This document shows positions 10,218 through 38,086 of a DNA stretch of 64,000 bases, piece by piece. Under the pieces are notes generated by a model, which did not search any database, was not told where the DNA came from, and saw only the letters and a program-made list of their open reading frames with translations. The stretch spans positions 18,970-82,969 of the forward strand of contig CALWQM010000011.1 of the NCBI GenBank assembly GCA_944383685.1. Direction: 5' to 3'. Within the stretch, counting starts at the first letter, position 1, and every line of letters begins with the position of its first letter. A program made the translations under genes and the position numbers. The stretch comes from an uncultured Clostridia bacterium. Lineage in GTDB: Bacteria > Bacillota > Clostridia > Christensenellales > UBA1242.

Positions 10218-13200
10218 TCACACACAACCATATTCACTAACTTTAATTGAAAATTGAATGCCTTGAAGATTAGTGCAAAGGTTTTGTGTGGCCATTCCAA
10301 GTTCAGTGTATGACTTAATTGTGCTTGTGTTTGAACCTAAGTTTCTTGTGTAATATTGCTTTATGCCATTCCCAAATATGTCACTTACAAGGTCACTAAA
10401 TTTAACCGAATATTTCGCTGAACCTGTCTTATTGTTCAATACATTTGACATCTCATCTGTGGATGATATAAACATATTAGCTGACTGACTTTTACTTGTT
10501 GTTCCTGTTGGGCTGAAACTTTCAACATTTGCACTGAATGTTGCTAAATATGTTGTAGATGTTACATTCTTCTTAAACTCATCTAAGGTTGTTGTGACAT
10601 AGCCAGAGTTGAGTCCAATCTCAGTTGCCGAATATTGCCCTGCATACACGATGGTATCCATAACTGCAAATGTGTCAGTGGTTGTTCCATAACCTGACGT
10701 TTGTGAAGAAGAATATGCAAGTCTCCACCTGATTGGCTCAACCTTATACCAGTTGTTTTCATTCTTGCATGCCTCTATGGTTTGATTATTATAAATAACC
10801 ACTTTCCCAACCATTGTTGTGCCATTGATATAGTATGTTCCGCCATTAGTGGTTGCACTATTAAGCTGTGAAATCAAACTGCTGTCTGTGACTTTTGTTT
10901 GTGGCATATTACCAATTTCCACATAATAGTATCCGCCTGCTGTGTCCTTTTTTGCTTCAAGGTTTGCCGTCCACTTAGCATACACTGTGTCATTTGCTGT
11001 AATATAGTTATTTGCTCCTGTGATTTGCCCTGAGCTACTCACAATTTGTGTTCCACCACCATTTGTCTCAGTGAAATATCCTCCAAAAGTGAAACCTGCT
11101 TTTGTTGGAAGAGTTGGCACTGACGTGATTGCTGTTGTTGCAGTGCTGTTTGAATACCAGCCAACACCATACTTCATATATATTGCACTTGTTCCATTGG
11201 TTGCGCCTTGCCTGTCAAGTGTCATAGTGTAAACATTGCTAACTTGGTGCAAATTGATTGAAATTGCTTGTGCTGGCATCTTGATTTCAATGTTTGATTT
11301 ATTGCTGTTTGATGTCTCAATTCCTGAAACATTTATTGTATATGATTGATAAGTGTAACCAGCATTTGAAATTATATCGTAAACTCTTACTGTTGAGCCA
11401 TATGCTATTTGCTGATAAAAATCTGTTGCATTAGTTGCCTTAACCGTGCCATTGGCACTGACATCAAAACTTCCCAAAAAATTGCTTACCCCAGAACCAT
11501 TAAGTGTCATATTAACATCAACATAATACGAATTTACTTGCCAAACGGCATAAAGCGTCATATTTTGAGAACTTGAATATCCTGGCATAATAGTATAAGT
11601 TGCGCTAGCAACATAGTCTGCACTTGTTGCTGTTGAGCTTGTCGACCAGCCTAGAAAAGTGTAACCAGTTCTCGTTGGTTCAGAACTTGTAATTGTAAAA
11701 TTCGCCGATGTGATATATGATGAGGAAACAGTCGCGTTACTCATGTTCCAATACTGTGTCACATGTTGCGAAGATATACTTCCAGAACCACCATTGACAT
11801 TATAATCTAATGTTATCGTACGAGAAGCTATCGCATATAACGAAATAGTAGAAGTTGAAGTTAATGTTACCGACTGATTTGGAGAATAAGTAAGTGAAGT
11901 CCCTGTTGAACTCGTTCTCCATCCATACAAACTCCAGCCATTTGAGGAATAAAAGGTATAATTTAAAGAAGACTGAGTAAGTGTAGAGAAACTTTGCCCA
12001 TAAGTTCTTGTTTGATTTTGCGATCTCAATGTCGTAGGAGATGTTGTGCTTCGATAATAATATGTGTTTGTGTAATCATTTATCTCCCACACAGCAAAAA
12101 GAATAGTACTATTTGAAGATGAATAAGAACGATATCCAAGTGAATATGTATCACCTGGCTCATAAGTTGCACTTGTTGCAGTTGAACTTGTTGACCAACC
12201 TAGAAAAGTATATCCCGTTCGCGTTGGCTTTGAACTTGTGATTGAAAAACTTACTGATGTCATGTATGACAAAGAAGCAGATGTGCTATACATATTCCAA
12301 TATTGAGTTGTTGTTTGCGAACTGGGGACATTCGAACCACCATTCGCATGATATGTAAGGGTAATTGTTCTTTGTGCTATTGCATAAAAGGTTTGAGTGG
12401 AGGTGGTCGTTAAGGCTATCCACTGACCAGGATAAAAATTTATTCCTGTTCCAGTTGTGCTTGCAGTTCTCCAACCATATAAACTCCAACCATTTGTGGT
12501 GTAAAAAGGATAACTTAAGGAAGATTGTGCAAGTGTTGCAAAATCTTCTTCATAATATCTTGTTTGTGTTTGAGACCTTCTAGTTGTTGGAGTTGTTGAA
12601 CTTCTGTAATAATATCTATTTGTATAACTATTCGGCTCCCATACTGCATTCATAGTAATTGTGGTTTTTCCAATTTTTTTCAACTCACTCCAAGGAATTG
12701 TTAATCCAGCAGAATATCCAACACCACCTTCTATTTCCCAACATGCAAATGTATAACCTTCTTTTTTAGGTTTTTCACGGGGCAAAGTATAATCATAACG
12801 TGCCCATGTTGTTTCAGAAGGCATACTACTACCGCCATCAGTATCAAATATAATATCTATTTCTTCCAAAAAATTAACATAAATTTCCGCCTCAAAATAT
12901 GTAGATACAGCAGATAGGGGGTCTATATTTGACAGAGTAGGATAAGTATTATCTTGCCCCCAAATATAAGTTGGACTACTTTCAGAAGCAAGCATATAAT
13001 CATCAAAAAAAGGAGCCTCTAAGGTTATAATAGGCCTCCAATTAACAGTTTTATTAAGTCTTATTTCTACATACCTATTAACTGGCCCTCCGGTCCATGT
13101 GTATCTAAAATATAATAAATTAGTTGCATATGTGTCATCGGCTGTTCCACCAGCACTGTAATATCCATAAGCAGCTGTTCTAGTTGGAGTTACACCCCAT

Positions 13201-13571
13201 GTCCTTAGAGTTCCATGGTTACTGGTCCCGTCACCTTCATGCCAGTAAGTAGAAAACCTGCCAACATCAAGATACCTTGACCGTATTTGACTATAACTTA
13301 ATTCTTCACCATCAATATTATATGCCACAGCTTGAACACCAAAACTTACACCTTGTGCCGATATCTCGTCTCCATCTTCTTGATTCTCATTATCAAAGTT
13401 ATTGTCAAAATTATCATTGTTTATATCACTTGGATTGCCTTCATTTTCATTGTTCTCTTCATTACCTTCTTGGGAATAAGATTGATTGCAGCCTGCTAAA
13501 AGGAAGGCACTTCCAGTGAGTGCAGTCCCAATAAACAAAAATGAAAATAAAACCAAAAACAACTTTTTCAT
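10218..13571 (-). CDS. Large surface lipoprotein with Listeria-Bacteroides (InlB B-repeat/Flg_new-like) repeats and a DUF6273-like C-terminal domain
   Basis: Signal peptide with lipobox LLAGC, then an Asn/Asp/Glu-rich linker. Repeated GYTFLGWSTSSTATSA.Y motifs. C-terminal YKVEPIRWRL motif. Confidence 0.8.
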   Translation of the reverse strand: MKKLFLVLFSFLFIGTALTGSAFLLAGCNQSYSQEGNEENNENEGNPSDINNDNFDNNFDNENQEDGDEISAQGVSFGVQAVAYNIDGEELSYSQIRSRYLDVGRFSTYWHEGDGTSNHGTLRTWGVTPTRTAAYGYYSAGGTADDTYATNLLYFRYTWTGGPVNRYVEIRLNKTVNWRPIITLEAPFFDDYMLASESSPTYIWGQDNTYPTLSNIDPLSAVSTYFEAEIYVNFLEEIDIIFDTDGGSSMPSETTWARYDYTLPREKPKKEGYTFACWEIEGGVGYSAGLTIPWSELKKIGKTTITMNAVWEPNSYTNRYYYRSSTTPTTRRSQTQTRYYEEDFATLAQSSLSYPFYTTNGWSLYGWRTASTTGTGINFYPGQWIALTTTSTQTFYAIAQRTITLTYHANGGSNVPSSQTTTQYWNMYSTSASLSYMTSVSFSITSSKPTRTGYTFLGWSTSSTATSATYEPGDTYSLGYRSYSSSNSTILFAVWEINDYTNTYYYRSTTSPTTLRSQNQTRTYGQSFSTLTQSSLNYTFYSSNGWSLYGWRTSSTGTSLTYSPNQSVTLTSTSTISLYAIASRTITLDYNVNGGSGSISSQHVTQYWNMSNATVSSSYITSANFTITSSEPTRTGYTFLGWSTSSTATSADYVASATYTIMPGYSSSQNMTLYAVWQVNSYYVDVNMTLNGSGVSNFLGSFDVSANGTVKATNATDFYQQIAYGSTVRVYDIISNAGYTYQSYTINVSGIETSNSNKSNIEIKMPAQAISINLHQVSNVYTMTLDRQGATNGTSAIYMKYGVGWYSNSTATTAITSVPTLPTKAGFTFGGYFTETNGGGTQIVSSSGQITGANNYITANDTVYAKWTANLEAKKDTAGGYYYVEIGNMPQTKVTDSSLISQLNSATTNGGTYYINGTTMVGKVVIYNNQTIEACKNENNWYKVEPIRWRLAYSSSQTSGYGTTTDTFAVMDTIVYAGQYSATEIGLNSGYVTTTLDEFKKNVTSTTYLATFSANVESFSPTGTTSKSQSANMFISSTDEMSNVLNNKTGSAKYSVKFSDLVSDIFGNGIKQYYTRNLGSNTSTIKSYTELGMATQNLCTNLQGIQFSIKVSEYGCV
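11535..12632 (-). repeat. Intragenic tandem duplication (2 x ~183 codons) inside the surface lipoprotein gene
   Basis: Residues ~314-497 (NSYTNRYYYRSSTTPTT...LFAVWEI) and ~498-679 (NDYTNTYYYRSTTSPTT...LYAVWQV) align end to end. Confidence 0.8.
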
Positions 13572-13577
13572 ATTTTG

Positions 13578-13606
13578 ATTTTATCAAATCCCCCCCCCCG
13601 AGTCAA
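13578..13606 (-). promoter_or_regulatory. Sigma-A-type promoter with a G10 tract in its 17-bp spacer; -10 lies 6 nt from the ATG
   Basis: Minus strand reads TTGACT c GGGGGGGGGG atttga TAAAAT caaaat ATG. The C-run on the plus strand is 13590-13599. Confidence 0.6.
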
Positions 13607-13782
13607 CTTTTTTGAGGTATTTTTATATATATTAATGATAATTTACTAGAATACTTACTAGCAGTAATCAAATAATCATTGAAACATCGTTTTTTATTTT
13701 TATAATATTGCTAATATTTAAGTACAAAATTAAACGAAAAAAAGAAGGAATAACTTCTTTTCTCTTATAAAAATCAAATTAA

Positions 13783-31985: not shown

Positions 31986-32228
31986 ATGAGAAAAATTAAA
32001 TATGGTTTAAATGAAGTCAAAGAAAAAATTAGAAATCTTAAAGGACAAGAACTTACCATGAGTATAAATAGGGGAAGAAAAAAAATAGACACTGTCACTG
32101 CCACCATAAAAGACATATATCCAAGCGTGTTCACAATTAAGACCACCGATGAAAAACTTCAAACTTTCTCCTACTTTGATGTTCTTTGTGGGGATATTGT
32201 GTTTAGTGGAAGTGGCGAAACTTTATAA
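31986..32228 (+). CDS. veg: Veg family protein
   Basis: 80 aa. G..L.......GR.K.....G.I...YPSVF.I pattern matches B. subtilis Veg. Confidence 0.8.
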   Translation: MRKIKYGLNEVKEKIRNLKGQELTMSINRGRKKIDTVTATIKDIYPSVFTIKTTDEKLQTFSYFDVLCGDIVFSGSGETL

Positions 32229-32258
32229 AGTTATGAAATAAAATTTTAAAAATTTCTA

Positions 32259-32290
32259 TTGACAAAATCCCCCCCCCGATATGATATAAT
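32259..32290 (+). promoter_or_regulatory. Sigma-A-type promoter with a C9 tract in the spacer
   Basis: TTGACA (32259-32264) aaat CCCCCCCCC (32269-32277) gatatga TATAAT (32285-32290). Spacer is 20 nt. TGaTATAAT gives an extended -10. Confidence 0.55.
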
Positions 32291-32310: not shown

Positions 32311-32889
32311 ATGAAAAATTATATCACTTATGAATTAATAAACAGTCCAATAAGAAGATGTGGTGGATATGGAAAAGCTAATGGTTGCACAGAAGAACAA
32401 ACAGCATTTGGAAATTATTTATATGCAATAGAACTTTTGTCCGGAACATACAATCACCCAAACAAGGTTTATGCACAAGGCAAAATTGATATGGCAAAAG
32501 ATGTTCTTGAAGATATCGCACATGCCTGCATAGACAAAGATAACATGAAAGTAAATTTCGATGATAAGACTTTTGCTAAGAATTATGCAACCGGTTATCT
32601 TTTTAGTATTGGCGGACTTATGCCATATGTAATTCAATATGTTGCATTAAAAGATGGGCTTGCCTTTGAATTTAATAATGATAATGGTTACTCACTTAAT
32701 AATGTTGATTTAAAAAAAGTTGAACCTGTAAAAGATGAAGATATGATTAAATCTGTTGTTGTAACACTTAATGTTCAAAGAGCAAAAACTCGCGAAGAAA
32801 ACCCAGAATTAAAATTCAATAAAAATTATCAACCTTTACCACTTAATGACTATATACCAGACGAAAATGCTACAAATAAACAACTTTAA
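32311..32889 (+). CDS. Uncharacterised protein, paralog family member 2 (192 aa)
   Basis: AAGGAGA RBS. Aligns with the 5435-6128 product (AFxNYLxAI, YxQGxID, MPxVIxYVALKxG, YSL blocks). Confidence 0.6.
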   Translation: MKNYITYELINSPIRRCGGYGKANGCTEEQTAFGNYLYAIELLSGTYNHPNKVYAQGKIDMAKDVLEDIAHACIDKDNMKVNFDDKTFAKNYATGYLFSIGGLMPYVIQYVALKDGLAFEFNNDNGYSLNNVDLKKVEPVKDEDMIKSVVVTLNVQRAKTREENPELKFNKNYQPLPLNDYIPDENATNKQL

Positions 32890-37507: not shown

Positions 37508-38086
37508 TTATAAAACATTTTCAATATAATCTAAAATTCTGTCCTTTCCAAAAAAGTTTTCGCTGGAAAAAGGAAGGACAAGTTCTTTTCTTACCCCAAG
37601 GTGCTTTGCAATTTTGCCAGCACTTTGTGGAATTTTGCTCTTTGCAAGTTTGTCCACCTTTGTCATTATTATCATGTAAGGAATTTGATAGTGATTTAAA
37701 AAATTAATCATCATTTTGTCAAGTTCGCTTGGCTCATGCCTGCAATCAATCAAAACAAAAACAGTTTTAAGCAAGGTGGAATTTAACAAATATTTTTCCA
37801 TAAGCCCCGCCCAATTTGCAATGTGCTTTTGCCCAGTTTTTGCATAGCCATAGCCTGGCAGGTCAACAAACTTAAAACTGTTATTTATAACAAAATAGTT
37901 TATCATTTTTGTCAGTCCTGGGGTTGATGAAGTTTTCGCCAAATTTTTGACACCTGTGAGAGCATTAATAAGAGAGGATTTGCCGACATTACTTCTGCCC
38001 ACAAAAGCAAACTCCACCATATCATCGTTTAAAATATTTTTCTCGTCAACAACACTTGTTAAATACTTTGCACTTGTTATATTCAT
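37508..38086 (-). CDS. engB: Ribosome biogenesis GTPase YsxC/EngB
   Basis: GRSNVGKSSLINAL, DLPGYGYA, TKVDK motifs. Confidence 0.9.
   Translation of the reverse strand: MNITSAKYLTSVVDEKNILNDDMVEFAFVGRSNVGKSSLINALTGVKNLAKTSSTPGLTKMINYFVINNSFKFVDLPGYGYAKTGQKHIANWAGLMEKYLLNSTLLKTVFVLIDCRHEPSELDKMMINFLNHYQIPYMIIMTKVDKLAKSKIPQSAGKIAKHLGVRKELVLPFSSENFFGKDRILDYIENVL

Follow-up and report, generated by a model that had tools for sequence, protein, structure and literature searches.

The DNA analysed here, a 64-kb stretch of an uncultured Clostridia genome that we call the window, has a G+C content of 32%, and non-coding DNA makes up no more than 17.6% of it. On the minus strand, the CDS at 10218..13571 encodes a 1117-aa protein whose N-terminus reads MKKLFLVLFSFLFIGTALTGSAFLLAGC. 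Bacterial lipoproteins, the substrates of Lgt and Lsp, carry N-terminal basic residues, a hydrophobic stretch, and a lipobox of the form L-[AS]-[GA]-C, and here we found a basic MKK, the hydrophobic LFLVLFSFLFIGTALTGSAFL, and the lipobox LAGC. The protein also matches Flg_new, the InlB B-repeat (E = 8e-15), which is the sole Pfam match over its whole length, and it contains TIGR02543 repeats. The original prediction had described a surface molecule with the lipobox LLAGC and InlB-B/Flg_new-type repeats, and the signal peptide (...LLAGC) and both repeat matches bear this out.

The C-terminal domain of about 247 aa (residues 871-1117; 10218-10958, minus strand) is conserved and serves as the signature of the protein family. 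Identity within this domain is 83-94% in P0002, P0003, and P0010, paralogues or alleles that diverge elsewhere, and 35-46% in members from the uncultured Clostridia bacterium E27__bin15. The domain has no relatives in Pfam and none by sequence in the PDB; the DUF6273-like end that had been proposed for the protein was not recovered, and the C-terminal 244 aa gave no Pfam match with an E value of 1 or below. An exact-protein look-up found no record of the 1117-aa product. At this gene, other samples encode products of 1113, 1142, and 1215 aa, and a search of the CDS for tandem repeats that could act as a size-variation device gave just one trivial 15-nt repeat.

A G10 tract fills most of the promoter spacer

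Upstream of the lipoprotein gene, the minus strand of the window reads aaaagTTGACTcGGGGGGGGGGatttgaTAAAATcaaaatATG. The start codon (ATG, 13571-13569) follows the -10 hexamer TAAAAT (13583-13578) after 6 nt (caaaat), and its A is the predicted transcription start. A TG at 13585..13586 makes this an extended -10 (TGaTAAAAT), and the -35 hexamer TTGACT lies at 13606-13601. Between the two hexamers are a single C (13600), a G10 homopolymer (13599-13590, C10 on the plus strand), and ATTTGA (13589-13584), giving a spacer of exactly 17 nt of which 10 are the G run. In a consensus scan, TTGACT-17-TAAAAT scored 10 of 12 matches with the TG preceding the -10, so that the two hexamers and the 17-nt spacer with its G10 are found where they had been predicted. 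Adjoining the -35 on its upstream side is an A-rich block, AAAAATACCTCAAAAAAG (13607..13624, minus strand), which is conserved in every copy of this promoter described below and is kept as CTCAAAAAAG in L028, a relative that lacks the tract.

Judging from E. coli and B. subtilis promoters, the A-rich block resembles the proximal subsite of an UP element. Together, the UP-like block, the TTGACT, the spacer, and the TGaTAAAAT are best explained as a strong promoter of the housekeeping-sigma (sigma-A) type. Promoters for alternative sigma factors (SigB with GGGTAT, ECF with AAC/CGT, sigma-54, and the sporulation sigmas) were compared by eye against their consensus sequences and rejected, since neither spacing nor motifs fit. 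Searching the 5' regions against Rfam at gathering thresholds returned no known RNA, riboswitches included. The evidence supports the G10-bearing promoter as the only plausible promoter of the lipoprotein gene. Farther upstream, after a 309/320-aa ORF, there is a weak A/U-rich hairpin with a U run (13737..13764, minus strand; -9.2 kcal/mol, z = -1.6), whose sequence is conserved in L027. If this hairpin were a terminator, for which the support is weak, the lipoprotein gene would be transcribed as a unit by itself.

The lipoprotein mRNA is probably leaderless

We found no Shine-Dalgarno sequence in the caaaat or in the 22 nt upstream, save for the G run 18 nt away. The G run itself was considered as a Shine-Dalgarno sequence and rejected, as it is too distant from the ATG and the TTG ORF that it could serve is 41 aa long and out of frame. 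A leaderless mRNA has its start codon at the 5' end of the transcript, no Shine-Dalgarno sequence, and a -10 about 6-7 nt upstream, and on sequence the lipoprotein gene has this layout. Its mRNA is probably leaderless, with +1 at the A of the ATG (13571). An mRNA that begins at the ATG would identify TAAAAT as the -10 and place the G tract at about -28 to -19.

This geometry recurs in the window: of 51 gene starts, five have a TAnAAT whose last base is separated from the start codon by 6 nt. Offsets 0-5 gave no such case, and the remaining offsets only scattered singles. The five genes, all on the minus strand and none with a Shine-Dalgarno sequence, start at 38086, 58594, 2378, 25671, and 13571; two of them are housekeeping genes, encoding an EngB-like GTPase (38086) and a PP-loop ATPase (58594). 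A member of the lipoprotein family, L029, likewise has TATAAT-aaaaat-ATG before a full lipoprotein signal peptide (start at L029 1429). Since there is no Shine-Dalgarno sequence and the -10-N6-ATG geometry recurs (5/51; L029), no way of expressing the ORF is evident other than through TAAAAT and the predicted start site. This recurrence suggests that leaderless mRNAs of this layout are frequent in this Clostridia lineage. Leaderless starts are rare in C. phytofermentans (PMC5171806), compared to which their frequency in the window is notable. The gene caller had set the start of the L029 gene wrongly, at an internal TTG behind an accidental GGAGG.

In three other loci, a homologous 5' leader of about 65 nt follows the promoter (L007 7844-7915, L010 7015-7079, and L027 2935-3000). 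It begins with an ATG at the predicted transcription start and opens an ORF of 9-11 codons, whose peptide is not conserved (MKSMIILDSMY, MKNVIIWASMY, and MEKHKNLGI); the main ORF downstream has a weak Shine-Dalgarno sequence only. The ATG of the window's lipoprotein gene occupies the position where the 65-nt leader of L027 begins, and the leaderless layout may have arisen by recombination between the ATGRAAAA of such a leader and the ATGAAAAA of the CDS.

Long G/C runs are rare and lie within promoter-like motifs

For the window, an independent-base model predicts 0.0024 G/C runs of at least 10 nt, and a first-order Markov model predicts 0.011; the original estimate was on the order of 1e-3 per window. 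G/C runs of at least 7 nt occur just twice in the 64 kb, as the G10 described here and a C9 at 32269-32277. Both are non-coding, and each is flanked by a TTGAC(A/T) hexamer and a TGnTAnAAT motif. Across L001-L011 and the window, runs of this length are limited to the tracts of the shared promoter and the window's C9. The G10 recurs identically in four independent metagenome assemblies besides the window (ERZ28614507, ERZ24773321, ERZ28614714, and ERZ24773293), and because of this recurrence the tract is no assembly artefact, an alternative that had been raised from the outset.

The C9 belongs to the arrangement TTGACA-aaat-C9-gatatga-TATAAT with a TGn (32259..32290, plus strand; spacer 20 nt), upstream of a 192-aa ORF of no known family (32311-32889). 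Among 16 assemblies that carry this second tract, we found C8 in one, C9 in 12, C10 in two, and CGC8 in one, and the downstream protein is identical in most of them. The C8, C9, and C10 states therefore indicate that G/C runs this long drift by plus or minus 1 in this organism. In every state the spacer is 19-21 nt, which is too long for cooperation between a -35 and a -10. Three loci (L035, L036, and L038) that are conspecific, with 98.8% nucleotide identity through SipL and veg, have neither the 192-aa gene nor the C tract and carry a convergent 654-657-aa gene instead; thus, the second tract and the 192-aa gene are a presence/absence polymorphism. Nearby, a perfect 14-nt palindrome, AACTTTATAAAGTT, at 32219-32232 (plus strand), spans the point at which the veg ORF ends (32228) and is variable in some strains (...AAATTTATAAAAT... 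in L014 and L035).

The promoter is reused as a cassette before large surface proteins

A pattern scan over 185,579 GTDB species-representative genomes gave six matches, all in one MAG, E27__bin15. A scan of JGI metagenomes with AAAGTTGACTCGGN{5,13}ATTTGNTAAAAT gave 0 matches, and the lineage seems to be absent there. Within the 64-kb window we found no further copy. The copies read ...AAAATACCACAAAAAAG-TTGACT-C-Gn(T)-ATTTGn-TAAAAT, and in a nine-copy alignment the columns are near-invariant over a stretch that begins about 30 nt before the -35 and ends shortly after the -10, with ATTTG invariant in all copies. In the window, this conserved promoter cassette spans 13572..13634 on the minus strand and consists of an AT-rich upstream part, AATACCTCAAAAAAG, the -35, the poly-G spacer, the TG, the -10, and the 6 nt to the start codon. 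A core of about 48 nt is almost invariant between the window and the six E27__bin15 loci, which share no other nucleotide similarity with the window and whose proteins are at most 46% identical to ours even in the best-conserved domain.

In E27__bin15, the six cassettes stand at different housekeeping loci before large secreted proteins, so that several paralogous surface-protein genes each have their own copy of the promoter, tract included. The genes behind them encode two Flg_new proteins of 1074 and 1058 aa, a GLUG protein, two lipoproteins, and a LamG fragment; in L002 and L027, the cassette precedes the family members P0002 and P0003. Altogether, promoter and tract are best explained as a cassette of about 50-85 nt that stands before many large, adhesin-like genes for secreted proteins and lipoproteins in related uncultured Clostridia. 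L028, a distant family member, keeps CTCAAAAAAGTTGACA but has an AT-rich 17-nt spacer without a G tract, and the family members L029 and L030 have unrelated promoters. The G tract is therefore an extra element in an otherwise functional promoter, and by these sequences it appears to be maintained in a subset of the family. Next to the cassette loci we found no candidate regulator.

Several copies have peculiarities of their own. In the L008 cassette, the A run of CACAAAAAAG shortly before the -35 is A7 and not A6; this is the sole cassette indel outside the G tract, and it too is in a homopolymer. In L006 (3486-4222), the cassette is fused directly to a 226-aa Laminin_G_3 fragment without a signal peptide, which may be a by-product of recombination or a decayed family member. 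In L002 (1-40), the P0002 member and its cassette immediately follow the 3' end of a 16S rRNA gene (...GGATCACCTCCTTT), a context that differs from the dcw/serS locus of the window.

Tract length differs between cassette copies and is constant at the lipoprotein locus

Our comparison of tract lengths rests on consensus assemblies, which are blind to heterogeneity within a population. The spacer is 16 nt in L006 (G8T) and in L007, L008, L009, and L011 (all G9), and it is 17 nt in L010, L002, and L003 (all G9T), in the window (G10), and in L001 and L027 (both G3AG5T). Two kinds of pairs thus differ by exactly one G, namely G8T versus G9T and G9 versus G10, and E27__bin15 has a 16-nt spacer in five copies and a 17-nt spacer in one. 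All cassette tracts are 9 or 10 nt, with no longer or shorter outliers.

At the lipoprotein locus itself, we found no length change in six conspecific assemblies, all of which have 10 nt. Besides the four with G10 named above, ERZ24773486 and ERZ2916643 carry G3AG5T, a pair of substitutions that leaves the spacer at 17 nt. The original prediction of a slippage-prone tract is therefore borne out in part: cassette copies do differ by single G's (spacers of 16 and 17 nt) and the window's C9 does vary, but the cross-strain check at the locus in question turned up the G3AG5T substitution only. The share of length variants is 0/6 at this locus versus 4/16 at the second tract, a difference that is not significant (Fisher p = 0.54).

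Across 1170 nt, L001 differs from the window at just two positions, both within the tract, and its tract sequence is that of the L027 allele. By this match, the L001 tract looks like a conversion patch. Two contig breaks, one where L026 stops after six G's and one where L020 begins after the second tract, were considered as signs of length heterogeneity and rejected. A break after G6 cannot arise from G8-10 length variants, and low coverage or a loss of read quality is more likely behind both.

A mosaic gene body lies between the cassette and the C-terminal domain

The flanks of L027 are 95.6-99.1% identical to the window, which places it in the same or a sister species. This flanking-gene identity speaks against L027 as an orthologue in another species, and we treat it as a conspecific or sister-strain allele. 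Homology to the window (95.6%) spans the promoter and ends exactly at ATGRAAAA. Over the next 2.9 kb the encoded proteins are 25-48% identical (window 10983-13563, minus strand, versus L027 2948-5883), and homology is back at 97.4% for the last ~250 codons and serS. Judged by these breakpoints, the gene body appears to have been swapped between conspecific strains, between the cassette and the conserved C-terminal domain. No inverted repeats or recombinase were seen at the lipoprotein locus.

Discussion

We propose, with about even confidence, that the G run is a slippage-prone spacer element that gives each family member a heritable and reversible expression dial. A run of 9-10 G is by its nature prone to slipped-strand mispairing, and one G gained or lost would shift the -35 relative to the -10, giving a spacer of 16, 17, or 18 nt. 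This shift would raise or lower the transcription of that one member, heritably and reversibly, as a per-gene volume control like those of Neisseria porA, Treponema tp0126, and Mycoplasma vlp. We infer slippage at this locus, an effect of tract length on expression, and the transcription start site; the slipped-strand "volume control" is plausible and unproven. Because the A-rich UP-like block and the TG of the extended -10 should blunt the effect of a 1-nt change in the spacer, any change in expression is perhaps modest.

Two observations favor a slippage dial, namely that a mutable homopolymer is kept across unrelated genomes in a low-G+C background and that cassette copies differ by single G's. 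We also count for slippage that the tract may be a hot spot, given that both L001 differences fall inside it. On the other side, tract length is constant at the lipoprotein locus, and the comparison of 0/6 with 4/16 gives no positive support. In addition, the cassette tracts are confined to 9-10 nt, and G3AG5T is stable enough to be found in two alleles. Some homopolymers that lie upstream of promoters are also inert, among them the T tract of M. agalactiae vpma (PMC2268961).

The near-identical core at otherwise dissimilar loci means that the tract is more than a plain spacer, which would not stay so conserved. This extreme conservation across unrelated genomes could also be read in a way that denies slippage any regulatory role, with C-G9/10-ATTTG as a conserved recognition or structural element of a surface-protein regulon. 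A dedicated regulator, either repressor or activator, would then bind there, or the G run would set the kinetics of the promoter as a rigid, A-form-like spacer; selection would hold its length. Such a fixed element would account for the constant 10 nt in six assemblies with variation by substitution only, and for the restriction to versions of 9 or 10 nt, and a promoter common to the whole family suggests co-regulation. However, a homopolymer would be an unusual site for protein binding, no other kind of sequence is as mutable, and the tract tolerates either length as well as an internal A and a terminal T. The L028 promoter has the same -35 context without any G tract, and no candidate regulator lies next to the loci. 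We regard a fixed element as unlikely, at roughly one half the weight of the slippage dial.

The mosaic structure of the family raises a different possibility, which we rate as slightly less probable still. The cassette may be conserved mainly as a 5' homology arm for the exchange of gene bodies between paralogues and strains, or through gene conversion, with the C-terminal domain as the 3' arm and the G tract carried along or at most a stimulant of recombination. The L027 allele, in which a body of 25-48% identity is enclosed by ends of 95.6% (up to the ATG) and 97.4% (the last ~250 codons), is what such exchange would leave behind, and so are the 2-nt patch in the L001 tract that is identical to the L027 version, the identical extended upstream cassettes of L007 and L009, and the L006 cassette fused to a LamG fragment without a signal peptide. 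Yet gene conversion covers identity within a genome and not the keeping of a pure G8-10 across otherwise dissimilar genomes, and G runs of this kind should decay in a 32% G+C background. Exchange of gene bodies is moreover compatible with a promoter switch and does not exclude it. Finally, a two-colour Illumina poly-G or homopolymer miscall is extremely improbable: one Logan contig (L026) does end within the tract and some variants come from low-coverage contigs, but the tract lies mid-contig with identical flanks in at least five independent assemblies, from several studies and at up to 24x coverage.

The slippage dial has known counterparts. A poly-G between the -35 and the -10, with an optimum of 17 nt, is found at tp0126 of T. 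pallidum and porA of N. meningitidis (PMC7864442). As in the window, a surface-protein gene has a run of about 8-11 G within the spacer of its promoter, and the spacer length at which expression is optimal in these systems, 17 nt, is that of our promoter (PMC7864442). On the other hand, tract heterogeneity and its effect on transcription have been measured for porA and tp0126, whereas both are predictions at our locus. Its host also differs, being one of the Gram-positive-type, spore-forming Clostridia, and its promoter adds the TG, the UP-like element, and the leaderless start.

In the vlp lipoprotein family, described by Citti and Wise in 1995, each gene reportedly has a conserved promoter with a homopolymer in the spacer and switches independently. 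The window family resembles vlp in that its members are surface lipoproteins encoded by multiple genes, each with a separate copy of a highly conserved promoter that holds a homopolymer between the -35 and the -10. The vlp tracts are poly-A and the genes are clustered, whereas the window family has poly-G in a low-G+C genome and is dispersed among housekeeping loci; its proteins are of about 1000 aa or more with Flg_new repeats, and its switching is a prediction. Indels in the spacer switch vlp in M. hyorhinis (PMC2268961). By analogy, the family may generate combinatorial surface variation: dispersed genes for giant proteins and lipoproteins, sharing a cassette that is sometimes leaderless, would slip independently at their poly-G tracts so that each cell displays its own subset or dose, while the cassette and the C-terminal domain would serve as homology arms for swapping bodies. 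We put this forward tentatively, as clearly less probable than the dial at a single gene.

Other systems are more remote. The tprE, tprG, tprJ, and tprL genes of T. pallidum are paralogous surface-protein genes with a poly-G just upstream of the transcription start, of a length (7-11 G, mostly 9) that resembles the cassette tracts, but the tpr tract overlaps or precedes the -35 and works together with a CRP-like factor, whereas the window tract is strictly inside the spacer. The genome of Campylobacter jejuni is likewise low in G+C, and its long G/C runs, which are rare, point to hypermutable genes for surface structures; its tracts are mostly in coding sequence and act by frameshift, whereas both tracts of the window are in promoters. 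Within the class Clostridia, surface and signalling genes of Clostridioides difficile undergo phase variation by invertible promoters (cwpV, flagellar, pdcB, and cmrRST), which is site-specific inversion by a recombinase and not repeat slippage (PMC11868660). We found no description of promoter-spacer homopolymer switching in Clostridia in the literature searched, in keeping with the original prediction, which knew of no such switches in sporulating Clostridia-like Firmicutes. The mechanism itself is classical; what would be new, and is unproven, is its presence in this host lineage and its combination with leaderless initiation and with dispersed genes for a family of giant Flg_new proteins.

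For annotation, rare G/C homopolymers of this lineage mark regulatory sites, and the lineage seems to use stereotyped -10-N6-ATG leaderless starts that gene callers mis-set, as in L029. If the Vlp-like reading is true, this would be the first family of repeat-slippage promoter switches described in Clostridia, a class known only for invertase-driven switches. If the tract slips and tunes expression, abundant uncultured Clostridia would gain a second, recombinase-independent means of surface diversification, acting gene by gene on very large adhesin-like proteins, which would bear on colonisation, on escape from phages and immunity, and on how strain-level metagenomic variation is read.
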